Below are positions 3 to 20,032 of a stretch of 29,477 bases of DNA, piece after piece. The notes beneath the pieces were generated by a model. It was not told the DNA's origin, ran no database searches, and saw nothing but the letters and a program-made list of their open reading frames with translations. Numbering within the stretch: position 1 is the first letter of the stretch; each line of letters starts with the position of its first letter. The stretch is from Alteromonas naphthalenivorans (GTDB lineage: Bacteria; Babelota; Babeliae; Babelales; CAIQNR01), in assembly GCA_047631715.1 (NCBI GenBank), contig JBLICC010000004.1, forward strand, positions 1 through 29,477, written 5' to 3'. The position numbers and the translations under genes are program-made.

Positions 3-92
3 AAAGTAGTTGTTGATATCTGGAATTATTGGTCTAAAAAAGAAACATCTCCTACTCGTACTACTGAAAAAACAACTCAATACTCTATTTAA
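3..92 (+). CDS. Partial CDS (3' end only), possibly a UDP-glucose/GDP-mannose dehydrogenase family protein
   Basis: The frame is open from the window edge: KVVVDIWNYWSKKETSPTRTTEKTTQYSI*, with TAA at 90-92. The 'VVDIWN' segment resembles the C-terminal VxDxxN motif of nucleotide-sugar dehydrogenases. It overlaps the next gene convergently by 8 bp. Only 29 residues are visible. Confidence 0.45.
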   Translation, partial: KVVVDIWNYWSKKETSPTRTTEKTTQYSI

Positions 93-1416
93 TACGACGG
101 CGAGAGATTCCAACATTAGAAAAAGCTGCATAGAGCACATAAATAATATTTAAAAGAAAAAAGAAAAAAACATTATTTGTATAACATGTCATATGGTCAC
201 ATAAAACATTAAGAGCCGTTTGATACCCTATTACACTTATCATTAAAAGAAAAAATAAATTACTTGTATAAAAAGCAGCAAATATTGCTACGGGTAATAA
301 TAAATAAGATGTCAGTGTTATATGAGATGCTAAACCTCGAGAAAAATGCTGTAAAGCAATGGCAAAAAAACGTAAAAAGTTTTTTGTTTTTTGTACTTTA
401 ATATCACTTCTATTTTCTCTTTCTATAAATTCTCCATTATAAACACCTTCTGTAACAACAAGATAAAAAGTATAGATACATTTTTTTACATATTCCCAAG
501 GATCATTTTTAATAAGTTCTAAAAACTTACTTTTTAAAACCTTATCTCCTTTATAATCCCATGTACAAGCACTTTCCCCATAAACATCGTCAACAAATTT
601 ATGTATTACAGGGCATCCATCACTGTTTATCGGTGCAATTCCCCATTTATTATTAGGGTATTTACCTAGTCCAGCTAAGCATACGTGACCCCCATTTGTA
701 GACGTTATTAAATAATGCCCACAAACTTTTTTAGTAAAGAAGGCCCAAGGAATAAGAAAACTATATAACATCAATGCCCATATCAATATTTTTTTACTAT
801 TCTTAATACTACACTGCGCCCAAAGAACAATGAGCATTATCCCAATAGGCATCAAAAAATAATCTGATCTAAAATTAAGAAGCAATCCAAATGCAATCGC
901 CGATAAAAATAAAGAAGGCCACTCTTCTTGTTTAATTCCTCTATAAAGAGCAGCTATAGACAAAACGCAAAGACTACTGGAAATACTGTAAGGCCACCGA
1001 ACTGAATGAAAAGCATACCAAGGAATACTTACTAAAAGTATTAACTTAAACAAACGAATATATGATTTTGGAAGAAGAGTATTTATTTCCATAGTACGTA
1101 TAAAATACCATACAGAAAATAAAGCTAGTGCAAACTGAATAGTCACTAAAGCAATATGATTCTCCGTTATAAGCATTATCCAACCATATCCCCATATAGG
1201 AAAAGTTAATGGCTCAGTTGTGGTAGTTGCAGAAAGATCAAACCAAGATTTAATAATTAATGCAAAATTTTTATAATAAATCTCTAAAGCACCTTTTCTT
1301 AGCTGTGCATCATAATTAAAATACAAAATAATAGGAGCAATACATGCCATACCAACAAGATAATAATGATCAATAAAACTTTTTAAATACATACTAAAAT
1401 TTTGCTGTGCTTTCAC
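85..1416 (-). CDS. Multi-pass membrane protein, putative GT-C fold (polyprenyl-phosphate-sugar-dependent) glycosyltransferase
   Basis: 443 aa with many hydrophobic segments. GTG start with AGGAG RBS. Motifs FPIWGYG, NFRSDY, STNGGHVCLAGLG and SDGC, plus a large soluble loop before the final TM helices, as in ArnT/PMT-like proteins. Confidence 0.6.
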   Translation of the reverse strand: MKAQQNFSMYLKSFIDHYYLVGMACIAPIILYFNYDAQLRKGALEIYYKNFALIIKSWFDLSATTTTEPLTFPIWGYGWIMLITENHIALVTIQFALALFSVWYFIRTMEINTLLPKSYIRLFKLILLVSIPWYAFHSVRWPYSISSSLCVLSIAALYRGIKQEEWPSLFLSAIAFGLLLNFRSDYFLMPIGIMLIVLWAQCSIKNSKKILIWALMLYSFLIPWAFFTKKVCGHYLITSTNGGHVCLAGLGKYPNNKWGIAPINSDGCPVIHKFVDDVYGESACTWDYKGDKVLKSKFLELIKNDPWEYVKKCIYTFYLVVTEGVYNGEFIERENRSDIKVQKTKNFLRFFAIALQHFSRGLASHITLTSYLLLPVAIFAAFYTSNLFFLLMISVIGYQTALNVLCDHMTCYTNNVFFFFLLNIIYVLYAAFSNVGISRRRIK

Positions 1417-1431
1417 TACTGCTCCTAATCT

Positions 1432-2685
1432 TTAAATAATTGTTGGATGAGGCAAAGGAACTATAAACTTACCTTTGTAACCTTTGTTTCGTAAATTAGT
1501 TATAAGTTCATCTGCAATATGCCAAGAAAGCAATAAAGCATATTCTGGTTGATCTTCAAAAAGTTTTGCTTCATCTACTACAGGAATAAGCGTTCCAGGA
1601 ATATATTTCCCTACCTTATGAGAACCTTTAATCTCTACCACACAATCCAATATTCCATCATCAAGCCCGGTATAGGTGATAAGTGTAGATGCACGCGAAG
1701 GAGCCCCTACTCCAAAAATACGTTCATCTTTATTTTTAATATCAGAAATAAGGGCATAAAGTTTAGAACGCGATTTTACCACTTCTTTCTTAAATAATTT
1801 AAGCCTATCTAGCGTAAGACTTTGTTCTTTTTCTTGAATTTCTTTTACTGACGCCTGAACAGAATAATTACCTGGACGCGCTGCATAAACTCTAATCGAT
1901 CCACCATGCGTTGGAATTGCCTTTGCATGAATAACTTCAAGACCATGCTTGTTAAGCAAGTAAGTTAAACTTTTTAAAGAATAATAACGCAAATGTTCAT
2001 GATAAATAGTGTCGTACTGAAGCGTTTCTATAAGAGGCAGTAAATAATGTGATTCAGAAACAAAAATGCCATCGTCGGTAAGAACATCTTTGATACTTGC
2101 AAGAATCTCGTTCACATCTTCCATATGAGCAAACACATTAGTTGCTGTAATTATTTTTGCTTTTCCATGCTCTTCTTTTACTCGAGCTGCAGTCTCTTTA
2201 TTAAAAAAATCTATAACTGTTGGTATGCCACGCTCTATTGCAAGTTTACCAATTTCTTCTGGTGTAATGCCGAGTACTTTAGTTTTATTTTTAAAATTAC
2301 TTAAAAGATTTCCGTCGTTCGAGCCAATATCAATGGTGAGATCTTCTGATTTTAAAGTAAATAACTGATTACACTCTTGAGCTAGATCTGCAAAGTTATC
2401 TCGTAATATTTTTGTAGTACTACTTGTATAGGGATATTCAGGTGGAAACAGAATATTAGGATCAACCAACAACCCAAGCTGTACTAATTCGCACTGTTTA
2501 CAAAATAATAAATTTGCAGGATAACTTGCTTCTTGCGCAGGAGTGCTTCCTTGCTTGCGCATAGTATTAACAGAAGGCAAATATCCTAAAAACAAAATAG
2601 GATCTAAATCGGTTGATTGGCATACTTGGCAAAATTCAACGGCAACACTTGCACCCGTATTAAAGGCTGTTTGTACGGTATTCAT
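1432..2685 (-). CDS. NDP-sugar C-methyltransferase (TylCIII/EryBIII/TcaB9-like class I SAM methyltransferase)
   Basis: Zn-binding CQVC...CKQC, DIGSNDG SAM motif, ATNVFAH, YDTIYHEH and HGGSIR motifs, and a C-terminal GAPSRA...LLLSWH...FIVPLP domain. I moved the start to the ATG at 2685 (MNTVQ), which has a purine-rich RBS and avoids overlap with the upstream gene. The ORF track extends to 2742. Confidence 0.9.
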   Translation of the reverse strand: MNTVQTAFNTGASVAVEFCQVCQSTDLDPILFLGYLPSVNTMRKQGSTPAQEASYPANLLFCKQCELVQLGLLVDPNILFPPEYPYTSSTTKILRDNFADLAQECNQLFTLKSEDLTIDIGSNDGNLLSNFKNKTKVLGITPEEIGKLAIERGIPTVIDFFNKETAARVKEEHGKAKIITATNVFAHMEDVNEILASIKDVLTDDGIFVSESHYLLPLIETLQYDTIYHEHLRYYSLKSLTYLLNKHGLEVIHAKAIPTHGGSIRVYAARPGNYSVQASVKEIQEKEQSLTLDRLKLFKKEVVKSRSKLYALISDIKNKDERIFGVGAPSRASTLITYTGLDDGILDCVVEIKGSHKVGKYIPGTLIPVVDEAKLFEDQPEYALLLSWHIADELITNLRNKGYKGKFIVPLPHPTII

Positions 2686-2702
2686 TACTTTCTCTCTCTT
2701 TA

Positions 2703-3680
2703 TTATATTTTTTGAACTTCTTGAGCATGTGCTTGATACCATGCTGTAGTTGCACTAATTCCATCTTTTAAAGAAATCTTTGGGCAAAATCCAAGGGCAC
2801 ACACTTTACTATTATCTGGACATCTTCGAGATACTGAACCTTGCGTGGTTGCTCCACCAATAATATGTACTTCTTTTTTAAAGTAATTACCAACTTCACA
2901 CGCAACATCTTTAATAGCAACCTCATTCATGGTTCCAATATGATACGTTTGTAAATGTTTGCCCTTTATAATCACATGCATAAGACCATCTATAAAATCA
3001 TCAATATAAATAAATGCACGCGTTTCTAATCCACCACCTTGAATAGGAAAATCAACCGTATCGGCATCTGTTTTTAGAGATATCTCATTCATACGCAATG
3101 CAAATTGAGGAATAACATGTTCCCATCCCATATTTGGACCATAAACATTAAATGGTCTAAATATAAGCACACGATCAAAATGCTTACGTCCATAATTAAT
3201 GGCTAACATCTCACTAATCATTTTACCTGCACCATATGAATAACGAGGATTTAAGGGATCCGGAATAATAAGAGGCACAGATTCATCCGTAGGGATACGT
3301 TCGGTAGATTGATAGACTTCTGAACTTGAAGCTAAAATAAGTTCTTTAATATTGTTCTCTATACAAGCATCAATAACATTCAGCATGCCACGCACACCCA
3401 CATCAAGAACAAGCTCCGGCATTTTGTAAAAATACTCTGTGCCGTTAATGTAAGCCAAATGAGCAACACTATCTATACCACTACAAGCTTTTTTTACTAT
3501 ATCAGCATTACGAATATCACCTTCTATAAACTCTATATCTTTATAAACATCACCAAGTTTTTCTATAGATCCACGAATATTATTGTCTAAAACACGAACA
3601 CTGTTACCTTCTTTTACTAAGCGCTTTACTAAAGCACTTCCTATAAATCCGGTTCCACCAGTAACTAAATACTTTTTCAT
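2703..3680 (-). CDS. NAD-dependent nucleotide-sugar epimerase/dehydratase/decarboxylase (extended SDR, UXS/ArnA-like)
   Basis: TGGTGFIG Rossmann motif, SSSEVY, PRYSYGAGK (YxxxK), RPFNVYGP and RRCPD. Confidence 0.85.
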   Translation of the reverse strand: MKKYLVTGGTGFIGSALVKRLVKEGNSVRVLDNNIRGSIEKLGDVYKDIEFIEGDIRNADIVKKACSGIDSVAHLAYINGTEYFYKMPELVLDVGVRGMLNVIDACIENNIKELILASSSEVYQSTERIPTDESVPLIIPDPLNPRYSYGAGKMISEMLAINYGRKHFDRVLIFRPFNVYGPNMGWEHVIPQFALRMNEISLKTDADTVDFPIQGGGLETRAFIYIDDFIDGLMHVIIKGKHLQTYHIGTMNEVAIKDVACEVGNYFKKEVHIIGGATTQGSVSRRCPDNSKVCALGFCPKISLKDGISATTAWYQAHAQEVQKI

Positions 3681-3693
3681 TACTCAAACTTTC

Positions 3694-4479
3694 TTATTTT
3701 ATAGCTGCCCCTAAAGGCACTTTTATTACTATTTTAGATCGTTGATAATTTGATGATCTAAGTTCTTTAATACCCCAAAAGAACCATTTAATATATTCTC
3801 TACACCATGCTATCACGTGCAAGCTAGACTCTCCGCCATACATACGATTAACCGAAACAATGGGATACTCCCCTAATCGTACTCCAAGCATTTGAACCTT
3901 TATGGCTAACTCAAAAGAAAAAGCCCACCCAACAGGGTTAGCCTCAAGATGAAGTTGTTCAAAAACTTCTTTATGAAACATTTTTACCCCAAAGGTAGGA
4001 TCGGTAAAAGCACCGCCCGCAAGATGATAAAAAAGGTAATTGGCTAAGGTAGAAATTTGCTTACCAATAAAAGCTCCACCCACATTCTTACCTCCATAGG
4101 CTTGACGAGTTCCATTAATAAAGTCACAACCTTGATCCATAAGAGCCACCATATTATTAATAGCAGGAATCGGACCAATATCATCAGCAGCAATAATCAG
4201 AATATATTCGCCTCTTGATGCCGCAACCCCTGATTTTACTGCATTAATAACACCACGCCCTCGTTGATTATACACAAGTCTAAGACCTGGATACTCCGAT
4301 TCAAAAGCTTTAACCACAGGAATGCTATTGTCTTCTGGAATATCATAGGTAATGAGCAACTCATGATCAATATCAACTAAAGCCTTAAAAATTTTTAAAA
4401 TAATTTTAAGACTATCTCCCTCATTAAATACTGGAACTACTATTGATAACTTTGGTGGATTTGAACTTTGCTTTTTCAT
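3694..4479 (-). CDS. GT2 glycosyltransferase, DPM1/ArnC-like polyprenyl-phosphate glycosyltransferase (no C-terminal TM hairpin)
   Basis: SIVVPVFNE, AVKSG, AADD, DFINGTR, FTDPTFGVK, FSFELAIK and a R..GESS tail typical of DPM-synthase-like GT2s. Confidence 0.8.
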   Translation of the reverse strand: MKKQSSNPPKLSIVVPVFNEGDSLKIILKIFKALVDIDHELLITYDIPEDNSIPVVKAFESEYPGLRLVYNQRGRGVINAVKSGVAASRGEYILIIAADDIGPIPAINNMVALMDQGCDFINGTRQAYGGKNVGGAFIGKQISTLANYLFYHLAGGAFTDPTFGVKMFHKEVFEQLHLEANPVGWAFSFELAIKVQMLGVRLGEYPIVSVNRMYGGESSLHVIAWCREYIKWFFWGIKELRSSNYQRSKIVIKVPLGAAIK

Positions 4480-5242
4480 TACTCTCTTTTAATTTTTTCC
4501 ATTTAGTTATATTCATAGAAGCATTTTTATACATCTTAAAAGACAATTCTTTTTGAATGTCTTCATACATAGTAGGTTTAAGATTCGGCTTATGTATTTT
4601 ATAGCGTTCATAGTCAGACATCGCCTTAGAACCTATATTAAGAGTTCCTACAAAATCATCTTCAACTACCACTTTAAGTGCTTTAATAAATTCTTCAAGT
4701 TCAAGTTTTGATGAAAACTGATCAATTGCAGCATCAGGAAATGGTATATTACGAGAATCAAAAAAACTTGTTCTTACAATACAAAAATCAGACAACACAT
4801 TAACCGCACACTCTGCTCCCAACTTTGCCCACCCATACGTATTATAGGGAATAGTAGGGCTCTCTTCAGAATAACCTCCTACATCACATGCATAGACAGC
4901 ATCAGTTGATATATGAATAAATCGAATATTTTCTTTAAGTCTTTTCTCTTTTTTTAAAACTGCTGATACAAGATTTGCTGTTCCAATGATATTTGCTTGA
5001 AAAGTAGTAACCGGATCTTTTTCTGCCAAACTTACACGAGCCTGAGCAGCGCAGTGAATAATCGTATCAAAAGAATTATTTTCAAAAAATGTTTCTACCG
5101 TCTGTGGCTTTGTAATATCAAAAACCTCTAATTCTGGGCATAATAATTCTCCAAAAAGTTTTGAATTTTGAATAAACGATCCAAGTTTTCCCGAAGCTCC
5201 TGTTAATAAAGTTGAGTTACTATAATGCTTATGAATCATCAT
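4424..5242 (-). CDS. RmlD-like NDP-4-keto-sugar reductase (SDR)
   Basis: TGASGKLG, IIHCAA, HISTDAVY, YSEESPTIPYNTYGWAKLGAE (YxxxK) and IVRTSF. Confidence 0.8.
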   Translation of the reverse strand: MMIHKHYSNSTLLTGASGKLGSFIQNSKLFGELLCPELEVFDITKPQTVETFFENNSFDTIIHCAAQARVSLAEKDPVTTFQANIIGTANLVSAVLKKEKRLKENIRFIHISTDAVYACDVGGYSEESPTIPYNTYGWAKLGAECAVNVLSDFCIVRTSFFDSRNIPFPDAAIDQFSSKLELEEFIKALKVVVEDDFVGTLNIGSKAMSDYERYKIHKPNLKPTMYEDIQKELSFKMYKNASMNITKWKKLKESNEKAKFKSTKVINSSSSI

Positions 5243-6134
5243 TTTTTCTTTTTTTAAACTTATTTAAGATAAAACAAATTAAAATTAAAATTAAAAATAA
5301 AACTGGACCAATACAAGTAAATACAAAATATAACCAATTAATAATCTCAAGATAATTATTAGGCACTCCATTAGGAGAAAAATAATACAACACAGGACCT
5401 TGCCAATAACGCAAAGGAAGCTGAATAATCTTACAAATACTATGAGAAGAAAAATCATTCCCATACTGAAACATCAAAACATTATTAAAATGCGCAAGCC
5501 AATAAATAGGATATGTTTCTAGCCGAGCTTTATAAGCAACTTCTCCATAAAAAACTGATCGTATATCTTTAAAAGATCCATCAAGTAGCGATTTTGCAAT
5601 ATCAGTCGCCCCCAGTAGGTGACCATCTCGTTCAAAACTTACATTAAATGTAGGATCATAAATAACCCACTTTCCATCTTGAAATACTTCAACCAAAGTA
5701 TGTGTTGCATAGGGATCACCAATATTTTTAACAACAAATAACTTTCGTGCTTTATACCCTTGTAGACGCAATGCATGCAAAAACAGCTCTGACATACCAT
5801 TACACGTTAACCCTCCACCCAATTTTGCATTAGTATAAAAATCTTTAACATGCTCAGACTTCCATTGAGTATTATTTTTTTTATCTACAAAATTCATAAT
5901 TTTTTGCATTATTTTAACAGGAGATTTTTCCGAAAATTCTTGTAATTCTTGAGGGGTTTCATAGGGATATCGATATTCAAGAGTATCAAAGTTTTGAACC
6001 GGAATTGTTCTTAATAAATGATTGTGATCTCGTAATAAATAAAAAACTCTGTATTCAAAAACAAAAATTAATAATAACATGCCTAGGCACACAGAATACA
6101 GGTTATTATAATTCTTTATTTTTAGTTTATTCAT
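5229..6134 (-). CDS. Membrane-anchored transglutaminase-like (Cys-His-Asp) domain protein
   Basis: GLTCNGMSELF...QGYKAR...THTLVEVFQDGKWVIYDPTFN matches the transglutaminase-like core pattern. There is one N-terminal and one C-terminal hydrophobic helix. Confidence 0.8.
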   Translation of the reverse strand: MNKLKIKNYNNLYSVCLGMLLLIFVFEYRVFYLLRDHNHLLRTIPVQNFDTLEYRYPYETPQELQEFSEKSPVKIMQKIMNFVDKKNNTQWKSEHVKDFYTNAKLGGGLTCNGMSELFLHALRLQGYKARKLFVVKNIGDPYATHTLVEVFQDGKWVIYDPTFNVSFERDGHLLGATDIAKSLLDGSFKDIRSVFYGEVAYKARLETYPIYWLAHFNNVLMFQYGNDFSSHSICKIIQLPLRYWQGPVLYYFSPNGVPNNYLEIINWLYFVFTCIGPVLFLILILICFILNKFKKRKNDDS

Positions 6135-7263
6135 AGGCTTGTTTCTTACTTAATACATTTAGAGCATGTACTATTGAATGTATTCCATATAATACTGCTA
6201 CACTTATAAAACCTAATAAATAAAGTGTATTAGGTATCGTCAATATTCCAGGCAAGGCACTTATGCACATCATGCCCCAATAAGATAACTCAATATACAA
6301 AGGCTTAGGGCGATAATAGGCAGCTAATAATCCAACATTAGTGAATAACAATAAGTAGTAAATCAATACGCCTAACTTTGCAAAAAACACTCTTAAAACA
6401 TAGTGCGGTGAACATAAACACAATTTTAGAACTTCATTACGCAAAACAGTTTCGTACTCTGGTTTTAAGTATCCTGCTGTAGGGTTTACTTGTTTTACTT
6501 TTTTTGCCGAACAAGCATCTGAAAAATAAAGGGTTTTATTATTAGTAATAAACCCAAGCCCCATATAAATATTGTGCCAAAAAGTATGCTGTATATTGTC
6601 TTTTTCAAATACATATCTCTGATCTTGTAAATAACTATTTCTCTGATTAATCATACTCTGAATATGTATATTAACTAACATCATACCCAAAAAAAGACAT
6701 CCTAGAAATAAGACTGTTTTGCGAGAATTTTTTAAAGAACATATAATTGCAATACTTACTCCAACCAATAATGGAAATCCAGAAAAGCTTCTAACAAAAT
6801 TGCCATATTCAACTATAAGACCAAGTAAAAAACTATATATAATTAATGTGCGATAACGCTTTTTTTCTAGTAATACGAGTACCCAAGGAAAAAAAGAAAC
6901 CGTAAAAAAATACGTTACATACACATCAGAAGCAAGCCATGCGACTATACCCATTGATACAATTCCAACTACAGTAATAACTTTTCCCAAAGTAGTTTTT
7001 GCAATTAAGAACAATGCTGTTCCAGAAGTCATAATAGCTATAGCAACTTGTCCAAATAAAAAATACCAAGTTGCACTCAAAGCTGAAATTGTAAAATGGA
7101 ATGCTATAAGCGGCACAAAATAAAACATACCCGCTTCTCCACCAAATGATTGCTCTACCGGAATAGGTTGTGTTCCATTATATTTAAGAAGAAATACGCC
7201 GGTGATTTGATACAGAACAGTTGCAGCTTTGAGTATTCCAATTCTGATGGGCATAAGATTCAT
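6127..7263 (-). CDS. Multi-pass membrane protein, paralog family A copy 1 (putative GT-C-like)
   Basis: 378 aa, hydrophobic, AGGAG RBS. Shares VRSFS, HTFWHNIYMGLGF, FSDAC, LRNEV, FAKLGV, PKP and SALPG.L..P..YL.GF with the ORFs at 10947, 14866 and 16042. Confidence 0.6.
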   Translation of the reverse strand: MNLMPIRIGILKAATVLYQITGVFLLKYNGTQPIPVEQSFGGEAGMFYFVPLIAFHFTISALSATWYFLFGQVAIAIMTSGTALFLIAKTTLGKVITVVGIVSMGIVAWLASDVYVTYFFTVSFFPWVLVLLEKKRYRTLIIYSFLLGLIVEYGNFVRSFSGFPLLVGVSIAIICSLKNSRKTVLFLGCLFLGMMLVNIHIQSMINQRNSYLQDQRYVFEKDNIQHTFWHNIYMGLGFITNNKTLYFSDACSAKKVKQVNPTAGYLKPEYETVLRNEVLKLCLCSPHYVLRVFFAKLGVLIYYLLLFTNVGLLAAYYRPKPLYIELSYWGMMCISALPGILTIPNTLYLLGFISVAVLYGIHSIVHALNVLSKKQAYE

Positions 7264-8200
7264 TTTTATACTCTCCTGTTATTTGCTCTACAATATACAA
7301 GGGACGTTGCTTTTGTTGCATATACATACGGCCAATATACTCTCCCACAAGCCAAGTAAGTAAAAATTGCACACCAGTAAAAATATAAATAATAGTTGTT
7401 AACCATTTAAACAATGGATACCGTGTTTCATAAAAAATAGCGTCATAGGTAATATATCCAAACATAAAAGCACCTGTAACAATTACAAAAGCACCAATAT
7501 AAGCCGCAATTTCTAATGGAAAAAAAGAAAAACCAGTTAAACCATCGAAACCTAATTTAAAGCTTTTTGCCCATGTATAACCTGGATCTCCAGCTACACG
7601 CTCTTGCCGATCAAAATCAATAAATGTATGCTTATAACCTGTCCATGCTACTAGTCCGCGCCAATAACGCGTTGGCTCTTGGGAAGAACTAATTGCCTGT
7701 AATACTTTTTTATCAATTAAACGAAAATCCCCAACATTACGTGGAATACGCACTTCTGCAATAGCATGTAAAAGTTTATAATATACATGTGCAACCGTAT
7801 CTTTTAGCCAGCCATCATTACGTGCTGTTCGTCGAGCATATACAATATAATAACCAGCTTCCCATTGTTTTAACATTTCAAAAATTAAACCTGGGGGATC
7901 TTGCAAATCTGCATCGAGCGTTATAATCGCATCCCCCTGAGCAACATCATACCCAGCAGCAAGTGCCATTTGATGCCCAAAATTACGAGAAAAAGAAATA
8001 CCTTTTATTTTTGTATCTTGCTTTGTAAACCCCTGGATTATTTTCCATGAATCGTCCCTACTACCATCATTAACAAAAACAATCTCCCATTCATAATGTT
8101 CCTTTATTTTCATAACCGCTTGTTGTAACTGCTCATGTAATAAAAAAAGCGTTTCTTGTTCATTATATACGGGAACAACAATAGAAATTAATTTTTTCAT
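7184..8200 (-). CDS. GtrB/YfdH-like GT2 bactoprenol-phosphate glycosyltransferase, copy 1
   Basis: IVVPVYNE, VNDGSRD, FSRNFGHQ, DADLQDPP, GDFRL, R.AG, two C-terminal TM helices and GEYIGR...RPLYIV. Confidence 0.9.
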   Translation of the reverse strand: MKKLISIVVPVYNEQETLFLLHEQLQQAVMKIKEHYEWEIVFVNDGSRDDSWKIIQGFTKQDTKIKGISFSRNFGHQMALAAGYDVAQGDAIITLDADLQDPPGLIFEMLKQWEAGYYIVYARRTARNDGWLKDTVAHVYYKLLHAIAEVRIPRNVGDFRLIDKKVLQAISSSQEPTRYWRGLVAWTGYKHTFIDFDRQERVAGDPGYTWAKSFKLGFDGLTGFSFFPLEIAAYIGAFVIVTGAFMFGYITYDAIFYETRYPLFKWLTTIIYIFTGVQFLLTWLVGEYIGRMYMQQKQRPLYIVEQITGEYKNESYAHQNWNTQSCNCSVSNHRRISS

Positions 8201-12098: not shown

Positions 12099-12100
12099 CT

Positions 12101-13492
12101 TTATCTTTCTTTTTTTAAGATAAATAATTTATTTTTCTTATCTATAATTTTATAGTAATTATTCAATACTATATCTATATCATCACTACCGCATAATTTT
12201 GTTTTCTGAACTACAGCTGGAAAGCGTAATAATATTTCCTTAGAGTCTAATGAATGATACGGCAAAAACATATTATAAATATTCTTATTTCCCCAAAAAT
12301 CTCCATGCCAAAAAAAATCTGGGCTTTTTCTAAAATTACAGGTTAAACCATCTCCAAAACAGGTATCCTGATCATTTGAAAGAGATCTAAAATAAGCAAG
12401 CAATTTTATTTGATCATGATTACCAAAGGCAATATTCCCGCTCCATATCTTTATAGAAGGGCATAAAAGAAAAAAAATAAAAAACAAAAGCAATCTCTCT
12501 TGTTGTTTAAAAATTTGCTTCAAACCTAAACTTGCAAAAATAGAAATATAAGGCAATAAAATAATCCAATAATGCATACCGTCAATACGCATTCCAATAA
12601 GGCTAATCACTATAATATAAACTAACAATATAAGATAAGATTTTTTATGGTAAAAAAAACCTATAAAAACAAAAAACCATAAAACTACATTTGGTAAAAA
12701 AACTTTATTTACCATTGTTTTTAATAAATTTAAAAAAGTAAATTTTTGAGAGATTACTGCATTAAATAAATAATTACATACCCAATAATCATAAAAATGC
12801 CCTTGAATATACAATAACACCCAATAGAATAAGATTGGCAATCCACATACTAAAATCCAAAGTACACACTTAAACAAAGAAATGTTCGATTTCCACCATT
12901 CATAAAATAAAACAAGAATTGCGAAAACAAGGAATATAAAGGATTTTTGTAAAAAAAGAAATGAACAACTATAAGCACATGCGCTCATAATTCCATATTT
13001 ATATTTTTTGTTTTCTAAAAAACAAAAAAAGTAGTAGGTCCCTAGAGTGGCAATAGCAACCTGAGGAATATCAGGTCGCACCTCAAAAGCACTATCTGCA
13101 AACATATTCCAAGCGCAAACAATCAAAACAGAAATCTTTGCTCCAAATCTTGTACAGAATAATGCTGCTAGACGATAAGTATAGAGTAACATTAAGAAAC
13201 AAAATACAAGACTAAGCAGTCTTCCGGTAAATAAATATCCAGTAGGGCTTAACAAAAAAGCAAATGGCGACAAAATATAATAAAATAACGGATGATGATG
13301 TTGAAAAAAATCTACATAAGGAATCATCGATTGAGCAATAAACCATCCCGAACGCAAACATTCCATCTCATCATAAACCCATCCTCTTCTTATTCCCGCA
13401 ACACCAATAAGTGTCCCTATGGTAACCAATAGACCATGCACAACACTTTGAAAGCTATATTGTCTTTTTTTAAAAAGCTTAGAAAACAACAT
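12101..13492 (-). CDS. ArnT/PMT-like (GT-C fold) membrane glycosyltransferase
   Basis: An N-terminal TM helix is followed by YDE...PYVDFFQHHHPL, then GRLLS, EVRPD and FLQK. Many TM helices and a soluble C-terminal domain. This layout is typical of GT39/GT83-like proteins. Confidence 0.75.
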   Translation of the reverse strand: MLFSKLFKKRQYSFQSVVHGLLVTIGTLIGVAGIRRGWVYDEMECLRSGWFIAQSMIPYVDFFQHHHPLFYYILSPFAFLLSPTGYLFTGRLLSLVFCFLMLLYTYRLAALFCTRFGAKISVLIVCAWNMFADSAFEVRPDIPQVAIATLGTYYFFCFLENKKYKYGIMSACAYSCSFLFLQKSFIFLVFAILVLFYEWWKSNISLFKCVLWILVCGLPILFYWVLLYIQGHFYDYWVCNYLFNAVISQKFTFLNLLKTMVNKVFLPNVVLWFFVFIGFFYHKKSYLILLVYIIVISLIGMRIDGMHYWIILLPYISIFASLGLKQIFKQQERLLLFFIFFLLCPSIKIWSGNIAFGNHDQIKLLAYFRSLSNDQDTCFGDGLTCNFRKSPDFFWHGDFWGNKNIYNMFLPYHSLDSKEILLRFPAVVQKTKLCGSDDIDIVLNNYYKIIDKKNKLFILKKER

Positions 13493-14876
13493 TTTTGATC
13501 TTTAATTTTATTTTTTTATATATAATCCCAAAACTATAAAACGCAAAAAGGCCAAAGGGCCACGCATGAACAGCAATAATACGGTCTTCTATATGAGAAA
13601 GTAACATATACCCAGAGCTATAAACTACTCCAATCAGCAACATTGATACCATAAAATATTTTTTTCTGTAAATAGCAATCATAATACCTATCCAACCGAA
13701 CAATCGCATGAAAGGAATATACGAATGCAAAAACAATTCTGGTAAATCTTTTATACTTACTCTGCCAAAATTAAAATTCTCTATATAGCGATACAAGGAA
13801 AATGACGTACTCAAATCTAAAGGTCGCCATTGGATATTTCCAAAAGCAATTTCTTTAATTCGATATATTAAACATTCAATTTTTCGATAAGGATATTTTT
13901 TACAAATATCTTTATATAAAATGTCATATCTTTCATAAAAACTAATCTTCGGGTCTAATTTCCCTATTCTAACCTGTTCATTAGTATAATCAGGATAATC
14001 TTCAGCCTTTAGCATGTCTCCATTCGGTAAAGGGTAGGGACTACATAAACTACAAAAAAGCGCTTCTTCTGTTGGTGCAACAAAATAAGTATTATAAGTC
14101 ACCTTATTAAAAGTCATAAAGGGAACCCAAAATAAAAGAATGTTACTTATCCAAAAGAATTTTAAAAAATACAATGTCTTTTTGTTATCAAAATATCGAT
14201 ACAATCCAAATATAAAGGCCAAACAAGATAAAATAAAAAATGAAGAGAATAACGAGGCCCTAATCCATTGACATAAAATGCACGTAAATATTCCCAAATA
14301 AAGAAACTTATTTCCTTTCTTTGAAGAAACAAAATAAATAAAAAAATACAAGAAAAAAATGATACCAAAATACTGAAAAATATCTCTAAACCAAATTATA
14401 TTAACGTATAATAAAGGAGGAAACGCTACAACTCCCAAAGAACAGATAAATGCCATCCATGGCTCTTTTACAAAGAAGATATTTATTCTAAATAATAAAA
14501 TACTTATTAAAGAAAATATAATAATATTAATAATTTTCATATACAAAAGACTAGGAACCCCTGTTAATCTCCAAACAGTAGATGCTAAAATTGGATATCC
14601 AAGAGTTTCTCCAACTGGAGGATTAACAAAATCTATTATTTTTTTTTCTTTACCAGAATATAAAATATATCCATTCTTTAGAGGATCTAGTCTTTCTATT
14701 TTATTGGATATACCATGATTGTAGTAACTATAAGCCCACCCTGTCCACATTTCACCAGTTGCATGTAAACGTTTCTGTATGGCAGAACACTGTAATTCTT
14801 GAGATAAATAAACTAAGTTTACCAATACAGATAAAAAAACAAGGACCCATTCTAATCTTTTTATTTTAAAAACCAC
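13479..14876 (-). CDS. Multi-pass membrane protein, paralog family B copy 1 (putative GT-C-like)
   Basis: 465 aa, GTG start. Motifs GETLGYP, WFRDIFQYFG, CQWIRASLF, FWVPF..FN and HIEDRI..HAWPF. It is a close paralog of 17202..18626. Confidence 0.6.
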   Translation of the reverse strand: MVFKIKRLEWVLVFLSVLVNLVYLSQELQCSAIQKRLHATGEMWTGWAYSYYNHGISNKIERLDPLKNGYILYSGKEKKIIDFVNPPVGETLGYPILASTVWRLTGVPSLLYMKIINIIIFSLISILLFRINIFFVKEPWMAFICSLGVVAFPPLLYVNIIWFRDIFQYFGIIFFLYFFIYFVSSKKGNKFLYLGIFTCILCQWIRASLFSSFFILSCLAFIFGLYRYFDNKKTLYFLKFFWISNILLFWVPFMTFNKVTYNTYFVAPTEEALFCSLCSPYPLPNGDMLKAEDYPDYTNEQVRIGKLDPKISFYERYDILYKDICKKYPYRKIECLIYRIKEIAFGNIQWRPLDLSTSFSLYRYIENFNFGRVSIKDLPELFLHSYIPFMRLFGWIGIMIAIYRKKYFMVSMLLIGVVYSSGYMLLSHIEDRIIAVHAWPFGLFAFYSFGIIYKKIKLKIKNVVF

Positions 14877-16026
14877 TTTTGTGCCTTCTTATTTTTGTAA
14901 CATAATATTTTTTAAAATCTTTTAATATACCTCTATTTAAAGCAATTATTAAAGAATACATTGTATAAATAATAGTTACCGTTATAAATCCAATTAAATA
15001 GGGGGTAGTAGGTAGCGTTAAAATTCCTGGTAAAGCGCTTATCCCCAAAGCTGCCCAAAGGGCTAACTCCAAATACCACGGTTTAGGATAAAACCAAGAA
15101 ACTAAAATACCTAAACCTCCAAAGTAAATTAAGAAAAAATATAAAATGACACCTAATTTTGCAAAAATAGTTGTAGCAATAAAATAACGCTTTTCTCTAC
15201 ATAATCTAAAAATTTCATTTCTAATTGTTTTTTCATATAAAACAGATGGATATCGAGCTTTAGGATTAATTATAAGTGCTCTATCTCCAGCACATTTATC
15301 TTGCCATGCAATGCTTTCTTGATTGCTTAAGAAGCCTAATCCTGTGTAAATATTATGCCAAAAAACATGAGTGGTTCGTTCAGGAATTGCAATACCATGT
15401 GCAACCAAAAATGTATCTCTTTTATTCATATGATACATATAATGAAAATAGGGAATAGAGTATCCAATCAAGAATAAAAAAATGAAAATGCTTTTTTGCC
15501 TAACAGACTGCCTATAGCTAAATAAAATATATATTATATAAAATACAAACATCGGTAGCGCCGAAAACATTCGTATAGTATTAGTAATCGAAGCTATTAT
15601 TCCTCCACTCAATGAACTTATCCAAAATAATATTTTTGAAGATCGAAAATCGGCACATAATAATATTGCAATAGGCGCAACTCCTAATCCATATGCAATA
15701 TAAGGATGATTAAGATAAATAAAAGGCATCCATAGTCTCAATAAGCCAATTACTATTATTCCATAACCACTATAACTTTTCCCCATATAAAAACATGAAA
15801 TTCCTATTATAGAAAAAAGCACACCAATCGAAATATTGAAAAAACAATATGTGGCTTTAATACAAGACAGCCCTAAACTAGAACCTAAAATAATGGAATA
15901 AAAAAAGTAACCCATATCATCTGCTGAAGTAGAAATAGAATACCCTAATGAACATTTAGTTAAAAGATAAATACCCGTTTCCTTAAAGGAATAATACATA
16001 TTTTCTAGTATCGCGATTCGACTCAT
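14866..16026 (-). CDS. Multi-pass membrane protein, paralog family A copy 3 (putative GT-C-like)
   Basis: 386 aa. Motifs ADDMG, IRMFS, HVFWHNIYTGLGF, WQDKC, IRNEI, FAKLGV, YPKPWYLE and SALPGILTLP..YLIGF. Confidence 0.6.
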   Translation of the reverse strand: MSRIAILENMYYSFKETGIYLLTKCSLGYSISTSADDMGYFFYSIILGSSLGLSCIKATYCFFNISIGVLFSIIGISCFYMGKSYSGYGIIVIGLLRLWMPFIYLNHPYIAYGLGVAPIAILLCADFRSSKILFWISSLSGGIIASITNTIRMFSALPMFVFYIIYILFSYRQSVRQKSIFIFLFLIGYSIPYFHYMYHMNKRDTFLVAHGIAIPERTTHVFWHNIYTGLGFLSNQESIAWQDKCAGDRALIINPKARYPSVLYEKTIRNEIFRLCREKRYFIATTIFAKLGVILYFFLIYFGGLGILVSWFYPKPWYLELALWAALGISALPGILTLPTTPYLIGFITVTIIYTMYSLIIALNRGILKDFKKYYVTKIRRHKSGF

Positions 16027-16041
16027 AATTTTTTATTCTAT

Positions 16042-17205
16042 CTATTTAAATCTACCATTAGAGACTTTTACTTCATATTTCTTTTTTATACTTTGAAATG
16101 CAAAAACAATACTATAAATACCATATATAAAAGCAAAAGATGTTAGCCCAGATAAATATGAAGGTCTCGGTGTTACTAATACACCAGGCACTGCACTCAA
16201 AAGAATACTACCCAAAAAAATATACTCTAATATGCCTTTAGGATAAAAACACCCCGCAATTAACCCAAGGTTTGCACAAGCAATAATAAAAAAAAGAACA
16301 ACACCTAACTTTGCAAATAATGAAGAACCTGCAAGCAATCGCTCCTTCAACACAATCCTTATTACTTCATTTCGTAGTATCTTTTCACACTGTTCAGAAT
16401 AATACTTAACTCCAGGATTGGATTTTTCTACATATCTTACTCCACACCTATCATCATATGAAATATCCAAATAATTTTCTGTATAACCAAATCCAATATA
16501 TATATTATGCCAAAAAGGATGCTCCTTTATTGCAGAAATATCATTACCTAATTGTTGCAATAAGCTATCTGTTTTAGAAAATTGATAATTAAAATGAATT
16601 TTTGGAACAATCATTCCCAACATAAGTAAAAACAATAAAGCACATTTGATTTTTTTTTGTACCGATAATTGCAATAGTACATAAAGAAAAATAAAGAAAA
16701 ATATTGCAACAGAACTAAAAGAACGAATGTAATGACAATATCCAATTACTAGACCAGAAGCAAACATCCAAGCATAATGATACCGTTTTATTTGCGTAAC
16801 ATTGTTAAATATCCATAGACAAAAGGGAACAAGAGTAAATGTACAAAAAACTGCTGCTACATAAACATCTGTCAATCTAAAGAAACCCTCTCTATATAAT
16901 AGAAAAAAACTTATTCCGGAATAAAAAACAAACCAAATATTACTCAGTAATAAAACAGATAATAAAAACATACAAAATGCTATTAACAGTGCCCCATAAA
17001 AAAAATAATTAATAGCTAAAGGTATAGGGATAGAAAACTTCCGTGCCAATAATGGAACAAAATAATACATTCCTAAATCATCAAAAACAACATTTTCTAG
17101 AGCAACCAATCTTCCATTCATCTTTATTAAAAAATAGTATCCTGTCTGAATAAAGGCTTCATATGTTTTTACAAGAGAATCAAAACGCCCACCCATTATA
17201 ATCAT
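16042..17205 (-). CDS. Multi-pass membrane protein, paralog family A copy 4 (putative GT-C-like)
   Basis: 387 aa. Motifs FDDLG, IRSFS, HPFWHNIYIGFGY, YDDRC, LRNEV, FAKLGV, YPK and SAVPGVLVTP..YLSG. ATGA overlap with the upstream gene. Confidence 0.6.
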   Translation of the reverse strand: MIIMGGRFDSLVKTYEAFIQTGYYFLIKMNGRLVALENVVFDDLGMYYFVPLLARKFSIPIPLAINYFFYGALLIAFCMFLLSVLLLSNIWFVFYSGISFFLLYREGFFRLTDVYVAAVFCTFTLVPFCLWIFNNVTQIKRYHYAWMFASGLVIGYCHYIRSFSSVAIFFFIFLYVLLQLSVQKKIKCALLFLLMLGMIVPKIHFNYQFSKTDSLLQQLGNDISAIKEHPFWHNIYIGFGYTENYLDISYDDRCGVRYVEKSNPGVKYYSEQCEKILRNEVIRIVLKERLLAGSSLFAKLGVVLFFIIACANLGLIAGCFYPKGILEYIFLGSILLSAVPGVLVTPRPSYLSGLTSFAFIYGIYSIVFAFQSIKKKYEVKVSNGRFK

Positions 17206-18626
17206 ATTATAATCTTTTTATTATGATTCTTAATCTGTATACGCTTATAGCTAAAAACAAACACTATGCAATCAAATAGAAAAGATCCTGCAAATAAGGC
17301 AAAAGGCCACACATGCACAGAAAGTATTCGCTCTTCTATATGAGTAAGAAGCATATAACCAGAACTGTATACAATTCCAATCATACAAAGTGAAAGTAAA
17401 AAATAGTTTCTTCTATAAAGTGCAAGTAACATTCCAAGAATTCCGAATAGTCTTACTAATCGAACCTGTAAACGCAGTAATAACTCTAAAAAAGCACTGC
17501 TACTCGAAAATGCATAAATATATTTTTCTTTAATATCCTTAGGAAGATGAGTAACTGCTTCTGGTATACGCCATTCTATATCTTGGCTAAAAATCATATA
17601 TATTCTATACATAAGAGCTTTTATTGGTTGCCATGGATATTTCTTTTTTAAAATAGCGTAATATTCTTCACAAGCACCATCGTAATCTTTTGCCTTTGAT
17701 ATGCCTTTTTCTAATCTTTCAAATACATACTTACTATGTCCAGCTACAGGAAAATGAAAACCATCATAAAATGTTGGAGCACACAAACTCGCTAATTTAG
17801 CCTCTCCAATTGGCCCTACAAAAAATTTCCCATATGTACCATAATTAAAAATAGAAAAAGGAATCCAAAATAATGTAATATTTGCTATCCAAAAAATTAT
17901 TAAAAAAGTACGCACTTTTTTAATTGAATATCTTCCCCATAATCCCCAAAATAGAAGCGTTAAGGATAATATTACAAATGACGGAAAGAGCGATGCTCGT
18001 ATCCATTGGCACAAAGTAAATAAAAATGATCCTACCAATAAAAATCGGAGAGATTTATTTTTATTCTGCATATAAGAAAGAAATACATATAAAAAAACAA
18101 TGAAACCAAAATACTGAAAAATATCTCTATACCAAAGCACATTTGTTGCTATAAGCGGGCCAAAGCATATAACACTTAAAGACGCACACCAAGCTCTTAA
18201 ATAAGAATTAAAAAGAAAACAGCATACTTGAAAAAGAAAAAAAGTTGATAAAGCAAATAAAACAACATTAAAAATTTTAAGATAAAGAAAACTTGGTTTA
18301 TTAAATAATTTCCAAATGCTAGAAGCAACTATAGGATATGCCATAGTATCTCCTATAGGAAAGACCTCTAGCTTGCTTTTCTTATCCCCTTCATCATAAA
18401 GTGTATATTTATCTTTTTTAAGATTAAAATTACGATAATAATTTGAAATTTTTCCTTTATAAAAACTATATGCAGGATAAATCCAAACCATACCCCCAGG
18501 TCGTGTATCTTTGCTTAATGAAACAATTTTACTATCTTGATGCAAATATAGAATATTAACTAAAAGAGCTATTACTACTAAAGAATATCCATATAAATTC
18601 TTTTTTTTGAAAATAGTCGAAACCAT
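17202..18626 (-). CDS. Multi-pass membrane protein, paralog family B copy 2 (putative GT-C-like)
   Basis: 474 aa, AGGAG RBS. Motifs GDTMAYP, WYRDIFQYFG, CQWIRASLF, FWIPF..FN and HIEERI..HVWPF. Confidence 0.6.
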   Translation of the reverse strand: MVSTIFKKKNLYGYSLVVIALLVNILYLHQDSKIVSLSKDTRPGGMVWIYPAYSFYKGKISNYYRNFNLKKDKYTLYDEGDKKSKLEVFPIGDTMAYPIVASSIWKLFNKPSFLYLKIFNVVLFALSTFFLFQVCCFLFNSYLRAWCASLSVICFGPLIATNVLWYRDIFQYFGFIVFLYVFLSYMQNKNKSLRFLLVGSFLFTLCQWIRASLFPSFVILSLTLLFWGLWGRYSIKKVRTFLIIFWIANITLFWIPFSIFNYGTYGKFFVGPIGEAKLASLCAPTFYDGFHFPVAGHSKYVFERLEKGISKAKDYDGACEEYYAILKKKYPWQPIKALMYRIYMIFSQDIEWRIPEAVTHLPKDIKEKYIYAFSSSSAFLELLLRLQVRLVRLFGILGMLLALYRRNYFLLSLCMIGIVYSSGYMLLTHIEERILSVHVWPFALFAGSFLFDCIVFVFSYKRIQIKNHNKKIII

Positions 18627-20032
18627 ACTACTCCTATGTTTAAACAGAATATATATAAAAAATACCCTGCCAATAATGGATAAATAAAATAAAATGGTGT
18701 TAAGTATCGATGCTCAGCATGAGAAATAATAGCAGGAGCAATCCCTCCAGCTGTTAACGATATCAGCAAACCCAATAAGAAAAATTTTTGCTCATATATT
18801 AAACATAATGCCCCAAAATAACCCAATATCATAAAAACCCGAACAAACCATCGTCTAAATAAAAACTCTAATAAATTGTAAAATCCAAAAGAATATGCTG
18901 CATTTAGACGATCAGAATATTTTGAGAAAGAATTATAATACTTCCAGTTCCACCCATAAGTAGTACTCCAAGTTAAATCTAGAAGTAAAACTTTTTTGAT
19001 ACGCCATAAAAATCCTTTAACCCAAAATATCGGGTCCTGACAAAACCATTCCCAAAAGGCCTCACCCATTTTATCGTCCATTGCAGAAGTGCCGACTTTT
19101 GTTTTTGTCGTATCAAGATTAAAGCGTTTTACGGTATATTGAGTAACACACCCATCACAATACAAGCCATTATTGGTGTCAGGACAATCTGGATTAATTT
19201 TATTAGGGCCAGTCCACCCCATGCTATCAAGCAACTGTTGGCCACTTGGAGCCGCAAAATAACGTCCATGCACTTGTTTATTAAAAAGTGTCCAAGGAGC
19301 CCAAAATCCTATTCCATTAGTTACTGCAAGAATAGATCCCAATAAACATATATTTAAAAACTTTTCTCGTTTATAAAAATACGAATATCCCATAATAAAA
19401 CAAAATCCTAAAACTAAAGATCCAAAAATAGTAGGCCGCATCCATTGACACAAAGCAATAAATAGTCCACCTGTAGTCATTTGTTTAATCGAAAGCTCTT
19501 TATAATAAGCATAAGAAAATAAATAAAATAAAACCGCTGCGCCATAGAAACAATAGATATCTCGAATAGGATTAACATTTAAAAACAAAAGTGGAAAAAA
19601 CAATGGCACTAAACATGCAGCCCATAATGCTTTTTGTGAGTCTAATAAAGCAGCAAAAAGACCCCAATAAAGCAGTAAGCAAGAGAAAACAAACAATAAC
19701 ATTTGTACAATCTGCATGTCATAATATTTTAAAGATCCTGTCACCTTCCAAGCCAAGCCCATTAACCATCCATAACCAGGATGTTCAAAAATAGGAATTT
19801 TAGATGAAGCAACATTTTCCTGATTAATTATCACTCCATCTTTATAATAAACACCAGCTTTATAATGTGAAAATGAATTATATTGATATACAGAATAAGC
19901 AAGAGCCGTTGGTGTTTCGGGATAATAAGAACCATTATTTTTTATATAACCATGAAAAGAAATAAAAAAGGAAAGACACATAAAAAAAGATACTAATATT
20001 ATTTTAACTTCATGAGAATTGCTAGCTATCAC
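18578..20032 (-). CDS. Multi-pass membrane protein, paralog family B copy 3 (divergent; putative GT-C-like)
   Basis: 484 aa, GTG start with AAGGGG upstream. Motifs EHPGYG, PIRDIY.FYG, CQWMRP, FWAPW..FN, CDGC and HAEHRYLTP. Confidence 0.6.
   Translation of the reverse strand: MIASNSHEVKIILVSFFMCLSFFISFHGYIKNNGSYYPETPTALAYSVYQYNSFSHYKAGVYYKDGVIINQENVASSKIPIFEHPGYGWLMGLAWKVTGSLKYYDMQIVQMLLFVFSCLLLYWGLFAALLDSQKALWAACLVPLFFPLLFLNVNPIRDIYCFYGAAVLFYLFSYAYYKELSIKQMTTGGLFIALCQWMRPTIFGSLVLGFCFIMGYSYFYKREKFLNICLLGSILAVTNGIGFWAPWTLFNKQVHGRYFAAPSGQQLLDSMGWTGPNKINPDCPDTNNGLYCDGCVTQYTVKRFNLDTTKTKVGTSAMDDKMGEAFWEWFCQDPIFWVKGFLWRIKKVLLLDLTWSTTYGWNWKYYNSFSKYSDRLNAAYSFGFYNLLEFLFRRWFVRVFMILGYFGALCLIYEQKFFLLGLLISLTAGGIAPAIISHAEHRYLTPFYFIYPLLAGYFLYIFCLNIGVVWFRLFSKKRIYMDIL

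Follow-up and report, generated by a model that had tools for sequence, protein, structure and literature searches.

A 29,477-nucleotide window (contig JBLICC010000004.1 of assembly GCA_047631715.1) from a bacterium with a small genome, likely a protist parasite of the Babelota (Dependentiae/TM6), carries a long run of genes for predicted sugar loaders and for multi-pass membrane proteins that resemble glycosyltransferases. We think that these genes probably encode a multiplexed three-component system for side-chain glycosylation, which would operate inside a surface-polysaccharide locus. The gene content, a link to a second contig (C19), the co-occurrence of the genes across genomes, and purifying selection on them were observed directly. 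(The assembly, G000, has 845 kb in 58 contigs and is 90% complete. The window is its contig C4, with a gap at the left end.)

The run spans positions 85-20032 of the minus strand and consists of 18 open reading frames (ORFs), with intergenic gaps of -80 to +15 bp if the first start of each ORF is used. This bears out the original prediction, made from the DNA alone, of a co-directional and tightly packed run of about 20 kb. Its counts were also right: we found three homologues of GtrB and one DPM1-like glycosyltransferase of family 2 (GT2), as well as nine multi-pass proteins, each with 5-9 transmembrane (TM) helices by a crude hydropathy count. One of the nine is ArnT/PMT-like, as expected (12101-13492 scores 31.8 bits for PMT_2, above the cut-off of 26.1 bits). 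The other eight have no Pfam family over its cut-off and no NCBIfam match. They were thought to be mutual paralogs, but they form two families of four, with no match between the families by BLAST or phmmer, and a single family of eight was rejected.

Family A (6127-7263, 10947-12098, 14866-16026, and 16042-17205) has 378-387 amino acids (aa) and 28-35% identity within the family. Family B (443-484 aa) has a core of three proteins with 24-41% identity (13479-14876, 17202-18626, and 18578-20032) and a divergent member, 85-1416, which we call B4. The relation between A and B is visible by profiles only (hhalign, 98.2%, E = 4e-14; for A against B4, 95.6%). By these comparisons, A and B are remotely related orphan families. 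All of the family A and core family B genes of G000 are inside the window, and so are all six of its GT2 matches over the Pfam cut-off.

The genes of the run are listed below. (The closest related locus, L002, is labelled Candidatus Babelota and is a contig of G054, a genome from the same genus; G042 and G053 are other relatives.)

85..1416, minus strand: GT-C-like, divergent subfamily B4 of family B, 443 aa; family B profile E = 2e-111 (this protein is among the aligned sequences); 39-41% identical to tandem paralogs in G053 that flank a DPM1-like GT2; fold by homology
1432..2742, minus strand: nucleoside-diphosphate (NDP)-sugar C-methyltransferase; PF08484, PF08421, and PF13489 over cut-off
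2703..3680, minus strand: NAD-dependent sugar epimerase/dehydratase; PF01370, E = 3e-46
3694..4479, minus strand: DPM1-like GT2, predicted polyprenyl-phosphate sugar loader; no TM helices; best PDB match dolichol-phosphate-mannose synthase 5mlz, E = 2e-13
4424..5242, minus strand: RmlD-like NDP-sugar reductase; PF04321, E = 9e-24
5229..6134, minus strand: protein with two TM helices and a transglutaminase core; PF01841, E = 5e-7; 75% identical to G054, 50% to G042
6127..7263, minus strand: GT-C-like, family A, 378 aa, with GE replacing DD; family A profile E = 6e-127; G054 ortholog 64%
7184..8200, minus strand: GtrB-like loader 1; PF00535 and motifs; G054 ortholog 83%
8213..9154, minus strand: GtrB-like loader 2; PDB 5ekp, E = 1e-77; G054 ortholog 80%
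9117..10112, minus strand: GtrB-like loader 3; by motif comparison, altered context of the DxD and acceptor loop, common to the G054 ortholog
10121..10954, minus strand: class I S-adenosylmethionine-dependent methyltransferase; PF13489, E = 6e-29
10947..12098, minus strand: GT-C-like, family A, 383 aa; family A profile; G054 counterpart 35%
12101..13492, minus strand: ArnT/PMT_2-type GT-C, 463 aa; PF13231 over cut-off; DE pair after TM1 (from the translation); G054 47%
13479..14876, minus strand: GT-C-like, family B, 465 aa; 41% identical to 17202-18626; profile E = 3e-92
14866..16026, minus strand: predicted GT-C fold, family A, 386 aa, modelled (pLDDT 91.7; ArnT, Z = 16.9); no TM1; R3, D36, D37, R152, H220, H224, D243
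16042..17205, minus strand: GT-C-like, family A, 387 aa; family A profile; G054 ortholog 48%
17202..18626, minus strand: GT-C-like, family B, 474 aa; family B profile
18578..20032, minus strand: predicted GT-C fold, family B, 484 aa, modelled (pLDDT 91.0; AglB, Z = 23.0); has TM1; E83, R157-D158, R199, D285, H-x-E-x-R-Y; G054 ortholog 66%

Predicted fold and active sites

We modelled one protein from each family (14866-16026 with a 19-row alignment and 18578-20032 with 118 rows) and compared the models to 48,161 chains (structural comparison, VIA). The family A model is most similar to ArnT (root-mean-square deviation 4.0, 282 residues aligned), followed by Pmt1 (Z = 16.3), Pmt4 (15.8), and AglB (13.1). 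The family B model is most similar to AglB (deviation 4.1, 317 residues aligned), followed by ArnT (Z = 22.6), Pmt1 (21.4), and STT3B (21.0). It aligns only to residues 15-473 of AglB, without the C-terminal domain. For both models, the top 20 matches are all chains with the GT-C_A fold (17 glycosyltransferases and 3 chains of the glycosylphosphatidylinositol (GPI) transamidase), and the next match is FtsW, at Z = 5.6-5.8. (The tool warns that helical bundles may reach Z near 13 by chance; the best matches are above that, and the list is homogeneous.) In Foldseek, ArnT is first for family A (E = 0.0017, with nothing under E = 0.001), and AglB is the sole match under E = 0.001 for family B.

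Thus, the two models, one from each family, agree with the GT-C fold that was originally proposed. Across the nine proteins, we predict this fold for two by model, for six by homology, and for one by Pfam. The fold of a transporter, a flippase, or a Wzy polymerase is unlikely: transporters appear at low Foldseek probability only, and WaaL and FtsW are far under the GT-C_A chains. For family A, neither of the outcomes named beforehand as contrary (such a fold, or no association with loaders) occurred. WaaL is only at Foldseek rank 18 (E = 0.67), and the eight proteins have no match to Wzy_C, although they may resemble a Wzy or WaaL family outside the lists, and a GT-C_A protein could still act as a ligase.

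A full HMMER search found 471 relatives of family B. A word-index search with the four-row family B alignment returned the window's proteins only, which reflects the limited sensitivity of that search, because HMMER found so many. Neither the family B profile nor 12101-13492 had a meaningful match in a sequence search of solved structures. Neighbors in the Atlas that have a named family belong to PMT_2/ArnT-type or CHIM_prot/DUF6020 clusters.

Family B has the first TM helix (TM1) of GT-C_A proteins (model residue 3 aligns to ArnT residue 27), but family A is predicted to lack it. Residue 1 of the family A model aligns to residue 57 of ArnT, 74 of Pmt1, 69 of ALG3, 69 of DPY19, 60 of AftB, 84 of ALG9, and 37 of ALG12. 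The first 35 residues of family A are not hydrophobic (median Kyte-Doolittle value 0.69, versus 2.04 for the first TM helix). The four loops or tails that are predicted to be inside are net basic, and the N-terminal tail is slightly acidic. We rejected the possibility that an upstream TM1 was missed: the open frames have only 383-393 aa, and a Met or the start of the ORF lies at most 7 residues before the Arg in 53 of 59 rows.

Published accounts, in the parts drawn on here, give the catalytic acid as D71 in ALG3, D82 in ALG9, E35 in ALG12, E71 in DPY19, D62 in AftB, D55 in ArnT, and D77 in Pmt1, and they state that GT-C_A enzymes share a critical or essential acid after TM1. This site corresponds to residue 3 of family A (in the register of ALG3, DPY19, and AftB) or to residue -1 (in that of ArnT, ALG9, and ALG12), as mapped from the ends of the alignment ranges, assuming no gaps at the start, rather than by residue-level superposition. 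At the tip of the first helix of external loop 1 (EL1), neither register has a conserved Asp or Glu among the 59 family A sequences. Instead, residue 3 is Arg in 59/59, and Met and Ile/Leu predominate in the columns that immediately precede residue 1.

Y109, R152, and D243 are also invariant (59/59), and D36 (54/59), D37 (56/59), D107 (52/59), H220 (56/59), and H224 (57/59) are nearly so. By the order of the motifs, D107, R152, and D243 resemble D158, K203, and the EL4 acid of ArnT, and the D36-D37 pair is located where ArnT has its phosphate-binding K85. We infer a charge-swapped active site in family A; R3 may equally bind phosphate as Arg. The core of family B keeps D/E83 (94%), R157-D158, R199, D285, and H-x-E-x-R-Y, and has no well-kept acid at the tip of EL1. 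(The commonest residues in EL1 are H-G-E-x-A-Y, with E in 32 and D in 8 of 71, and the window's three core proteins do not keep this pattern.) B4 lacks the acid at position 83.

The motifs that had been assigned to all eight proteins are partly upheld. The Arg of the IR motif is in all eight. The Asp of D-x-C is in 59/59 family A sequences, but the Cys is in only 19/59, and two of the four family B proteins lack the Asp in the alignment. The acidic pair sits before the second helix of the first outer loop, which is not the canonical catalytic position.

Because TM1 and the EL1 acid are two defining features of GT-C_A, and both are absent, we call family A GT-C_A-derived. What is new here, as predicted from models and alignments, is a family without TM1 and without the canonical acid, with an invariant Arg at that site and a near-invariant DD on the next helix. 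In the literature within reach (most subscription journals were not), we found no paper on these families, on glycosyltransferases of Babelota, or on a GT-C without TM1.

Co-occurrence with sugar loaders

The three GtrB homologues have 49-59% mutual identity (7184-8200 and 9117-10112 are 56-59% identical to 8213-9154), and each has two predicted C-terminal TM helices. 8213-9154, the only one that we searched against the PDB, matches the GtrB of Synechocystis (5ekp). All three have the DxD and the Asp of the acceptor loop. Judging by sequence, these three and the DPM1-like GT2 are predicted to be the polyprenyl-phosphate sugar synthases that a three-component system requires. The altered motifs that 9117-10112 shares with its G054 ortholog hint at a different donor.

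Family A is present in 31/261 genomes of the phylum. GtrB (at E <= 1e-60) is present in 84 of the 261, namely in 30/31 genomes with family A and in 54/230 others. The genes are also close together: GtrB is within 10 kb of family A in 28/31 genomes and within 1 kb in 27/31. (Distances were tested for the 56 top-scoring GtrB places and for that of G111.) As for the three misses, family A is at a contig end in G082 and G083, and G111 is 64% complete. The GtrB subfamily that scores at least 360 bits occurs in 31 genomes, of which 29 have family A and two have this GtrB no more than about 3 kb from core family B.

A wider genome scan gave 20 family A loci (five from genomes that are also in the phylum set). 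With a profile of the window's three GtrBs alone, we found a GtrB-like gene in 15/20, including loci from Chlamydiae, Verrucomicrobia, Eubacteriales, Acidobacteriaceae, and actinobacterial records. Two of the loci without GtrB have a DPMS-type GT2. Together, the phylum genomes and the wider scan bear out the expected association of family A with loaders.

For family B, the association was found only in part. Nine genomes have a family B match stronger than E = 1e-40: six of them have GtrB nearby, G053 has a DPM1-like GT2, and G232 and G234 have no GtrB. In G053 (C3:61771-69569, L042-L043), a single DPM1-like GT2 lies among five tandem B4-like paralogs, and the genome has no GtrB at E <= 1e-60. 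Separately, the module of C-methyltransferase, epimerase, and DPM1-like GT2 (1432-5242 in the window) is found again on an unrelated metagenome contig (L076), close to genes for a B4 protein and a sugar dehydrogenase. This recurrence suggests a lipid-linked C-methyl sugar.

Other genes recur beside family A. A small EamA/SMR-like protein is in four family A loci (below the Pfam cut-off in three), where it completes the three components. A methyltransferase family of about 230 aa (C24:1119-1814 in G000) adjoins GtrB or family A in many loci, and is 43-57% identical in loci of other Babelota, Chlamydiae, and Verrucomicrobia. It is likely the third member of a cassette.

The surrounding locus and its relatives

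The run is not self-contained. The locus continues beyond the right end of the window into contig C19 (311-bp overlap, 99.4% identity), so the likely acceptor pathway (Wzm/Wzt) was out of sight of the original prediction. The window's other features are:

20205..21746, plus strand: membrane-anchored protein with a predicted sulfatase fold; PF00884, E = 3e-7; the G054 homolog is at the opposite end of the G054 locus
21740..23011, minus strand: family 4 glycosyltransferase (GT4) that marks the backbone locus across Babelota; PF00534; in 30/191 genomes of the phylum
23029..29373, strand not assigned: TylF O-methyltransferase, RmlC, epimerase, GT2, RfbG-like dehydratase, RfbF, and TIGR04440 GT2 (sugar supply and backbone); the locus runs on into C19

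C19 encodes WecB, WecC, a two-domain oxidoreductase, a frameshifted tenth GT-C, a ManC-like protein, AsnB, two GT4s, a methyltransferase, Wzm, and Wzt (with a Wzt_C domain). Contig C24 begins with a sugar dehydrogenase, a methyltransferase, and glyA, in agreement with the far end of the G053 and G054 loci (this join is by synteny only). In G054, G042, G053, and G085, the locus is between alaS and glyA/efp. It comprises about 45 kb, or 5.3% of the assembly, and the run in the window is its variable half. G000 also has two PF00953 genes, which we read as MraY and WecA. The locus GT4, which is in 30/191 near-complete genomes, is in 23/25 of those with family A.

Fetched regions of 11 relatives hold 1-8 GT-C-like genes and 0-4 GtrBs. 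The GT-C-like genes number 8 in G054, at least 7 in G163, 6 in G053, and 6 in G110. The window is therefore at the top of the range and not unique, and a unique expansion was rejected. A copy number of 1-8 is as expected of decorations.

The four family A genes and the three GtrBs each pair with one gene of G054 (support 91-100, in quick trees that we used for ortholog pairs only). This one-to-one pairing implies that the panel is older than the split of the two species. Against G054, dN is 0.12-0.17 for the GtrBs and 0.26-0.66 for six of the nine GT-Cs, with dS of 1.1-1.8 (near saturation, so rough). By this measure, the GtrBs and GT-Cs that were compared are under purifying selection.

LpxC was found in 0/6 genomes (90-99% complete; G000 and, over the cut-off, five better-assembled relatives), so there is likely no lipid A acceptor, and modification of lipid A was rejected as the function. 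Parts of PMC4776705 describe Babeliales as without most lipopolysaccharide (LPS) genes, with a degenerate, LPS-poor envelope.

Several other features of the locus and genome deserve mention. The tenth GT-C (L001:7666-9014 on C19, over the cut-off for PMT_2) has a frameshift that divides it at ten consecutive A (C19:8007-8016), one of 11 A/T runs of at least 10 in the assembly. The frameshift is either an assembly error or slipped-strand switching. This gene is absent from that site in G054 and present in G053. The sulfatase-fold protein (20205-21746) is possibly a transferase of a phospho-substituent. The transglutaminase-core protein (5229-6134) is retained in the loci of G054 and G042; acylation or cross-linking of a surface layer would be speculation. 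The GC content of the GT-C-rich block (10947-20032) is 29.6%, lower than in the genome (35.6%) and in the GtrBs (34.8%), and may reflect either the composition of membrane proteins or a foreign origin. Contigs from one DNA run, which may be the source of the assembly, span most of 74-19787 piecewise, with 0-1 differences, and are not independent; no RNA data set with this sequence was listed. In G163 (C2:296001-336000, L055-L056), one run holds at least seven family-B-like genes, several proteins with 8-10 TM helices, and one GtrB.

Elsewhere in G000, there are tandem runs of multi-pass proteins at C6:300-2725 and C10:18086-22187 (EamA-type) and at C2:16552-22451. A heparinase II/III-like gene (C14:14972-16843) is unlinked, after a metG-looking gene; in distant relatives, such a gene is inside the locus. 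In other Babeliales, fusions of about 910 aa combine the locus GT4 with a membrane domain that is weakly Wzx-like (L013:7116-9857, L028:16300-19083, L059:2302-5013, and L040:1-1863), and Wzm/Wzt were not seen in the fetched DNA of those genomes.

Proposed mechanism and alternatives

In the system that we consider probable, WecA would start a polymer on undecaprenyl pyrophosphate (Und-PP), and cytoplasmic GT4s and GT2s would extend it. The polymer would contain amino-uronic residues, possibly amidated by AsnB, and we predict that Wzm/Wzt export it. The GT2 loaders would place sugars on undecaprenyl phosphate (Und-P), a flippase would move these Und-P-sugar donors, and most of the GT-Cs would add the sugars, outside the cytoplasm, as side branches on the exported polymer. 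The partners of family A would be the GtrBs and the conserved methyltransferase; those of B4 would be the DPM1-like GT2 and the neighboring epimerase, C-methyltransferase, and reductase. In the active site of family A, D36/D37, with D107 and D243, would replace the canonical acid. One GT-C, most likely of family B, may instead move the finished polymer to its anchor.

Multiplexing itself is already known. The original prediction held that one loader normally goes with one transferase in known systems, which is too strong: a single locus of Streptococcus mutans encodes two loaders and two GT-Cs, and systems with several GT-Cs are noted in Xanthomonas and Bacillus (relevant parts of PMC11754754 and PMC11127046). 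S. mutans SccN/SccP and SccM/SccQ are also similar in having an ABC-exported backbone and no known flippase, as far as those parts of PMC11754754 describe them. Unlike that 2 + 2 system, the window has 4 + 9 in what is probably a diderm parasite, with pathways for methyl- and deoxy-sugars and another backbone. The three-component systems described in part in PMC11127046 (GtrABC of Shigella and Salmonella, the ABC-linked system of Klebsiella, and GT136 of Citrobacter) likewise have a GtrB-type loader and a GT-C, next to a polysaccharide locus that includes an ABC exporter. Unlike them, the window has four loaders and nine or ten GT-Cs, with no GtrA or MATE flippase found; there is likely no lipid A or O-antigen; and families A and B match no curated family and lack the canonical Asp. 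(GT-C classes and donors follow the relevant parts of PMC10920833.)

ArnT, of the ArnC/ArnEF/ArnT system (GT83; 5f15), is the best fold match of family A and is tied for the best of family B, and by motif order, Asp and Arg occupy the positions of its D158 and K203. Unlike the ArnT system, ours comes without LpxC in the genomes searched, and family A aligns from ArnT residue 57 onward, after TM1 and D55, with acids at the place of K85 (again by motif order). The oligosaccharyltransferases AglB, PglB, and STT3 (GT66) resemble the membrane domain of family B (Z = 19-23), but family B lacks their C-terminal, sequon-binding domain, and PF02516 is in 0/5 genomes. In mycobacteria, the many GT-Cs of the Aft/Emb/PimE panel build one envelope, from dispersed genes and with few donors. 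They are also among our fold matches (Z = 7.8-16.4). Unlike family A, they keep the EL1 Asp (D62 in the portion of the AftB work drawn on here).

Several observations weigh against our proposal. First, families A and B lack the acid that the papers, in the parts cited above, call essential in GT-C_A enzymes. Second, the flippase is missing: GtrA has no match in G000 (90% complete) and none over the cut-off in five better-assembled relatives, G000 has no homologue of the small EamA-like protein and no Wzx-like match, and the locus has none. (Unlinked EamA genes do exist in G000.) Third, the 17-row GtrB profile used for the phylum genomes was built from neighbors of family A, and related genomes are not independent. 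Fourth, the fetched DNA of 3/20 family A loci in the wider scan (L006, L014, and L016) has no loader; a loader is near B4 relatives in only 8/43 metagenome loci (5/13 among loci of at least 9 kb); and G232 and G234, each with a single family B gene, lack GtrB at that genome-wide threshold (E <= 1e-60). (Their short GT2 is weakly loader-like, with E = 1e-6; the one from G232 was tested.) Fifth, by a hand tally, at least one GT-C-like match persists in 29/30 genomes that have the locus GT4, which fits an essential ligase equally well. (The exception is G104, which has a two-gene remnant.)

Some of these observations would be explained if families A and B were mainly ligases, oligosaccharyltransferases, or polymerases. 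They would then use an Und-PP-glycan donor, transfer it to proteins or a lipid anchor or polymerize it, and replace WaaL or Wzy in an LPS-less envelope, with the paralogs serving different acceptors. The matches of family B to AglB, STT3, and PglB (Z = 23.0, 21.0, and 19.0), with AglB the only one under E = 0.001 in Foldseek, point this way. So do G232 and G234, which have Wzx with their single family B gene, the B4 and family A genes of several loci that sit in loader-less operons with oxidoreductase, AsnB, Wzx, and heparinase genes, and the near-universal retention of a GT-C-like match in genomes with the locus. Also, Wzy_C was not found in 6 genomes (G000 and five better-assembled relatives), STT3 (PF02516) in 5 (G000 and four), or LCP in G000, which counts against our proposal as well. 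Nevertheless, we consider this alternative unlikely. AglB and ArnT are tied for family B, with the C-terminal domain of AglB unmatched; GtrB is within 1 kb of family A in most genomes that have it; and two Acidobacteriaceae loci have separate Wzy_C genes beside family A. Ligases are rarely needed in 4-8 copies. One GT-C may be a ligase, because no WaaL, LCP, or STT3 was found, and a single GT-C in that role is compatible with side-chain glycosylation by the others.

The GT-Cs might also use Und-P-sugars directly on proteins or membrane lipids, as PMT and ArnT do, and not on a polysaccharide. ArnT, Pmt1, and Pmt4 are the closest folds to family A, and an Arg at the position of the base would suit an anionic acceptor that needs no deprotonation. 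This seems improbable to us: a lipid A acceptor is unlikely without LpxC, the genes are inside a polysaccharide locus, and family A tracks the locus GT4.

Finally, we consider it very improbable that family A is a non-catalytic derivative of GT-C that binds Und-P-sugar and serves as a flippase, a carrier, or a scaffold for GtrB; this would explain the lost TM1, the lost acid, the missing GtrA, and the tight linkage to GtrB, and the fold matches include GPI-transamidase chains, which we take to be non-catalytic, but polar residues of the outer loops are invariant (R3, Y109, R152, and D243) or nearly so (D37 and H224), a separate EamA/SMR-like protein is beside family A in four loci, and the two-GtrB locus of G042 has no GT-C-like genes except two of family A, so the donor would have no other user there.

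Returning to side-chain glycosylation, we tentatively propose a more specific version, which we consider less likely than not. Family A would be a minimal and so far undescribed GT-C family, without TM1 and the EL1 acid and with a charge-swapped site, that travels across phyla in a cassette with GtrB and the methyltransferase. In Babelota parasites without LPS, it and its sister family B would have expanded into a combinatorial panel for glycan editing that takes up about 5% of the genome, and one member would anchor the polymer instead of WaaL.

These genomes devote a fixed site to one surface-glycan locus (about 5% of the 845-kb assembly in G000), and its GT-C content varies among relatives. 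The locus is a testable candidate for the coat that would stand in place of LPS in these protist parasites, which are likely LPS-less. If family A does catalyze glycosyl transfer without TM1 and the acid, it would represent a new catalytic arrangement and a new CAZy family, and its small size (about 380 aa) would suit it as a scaffold for glycoengineering.

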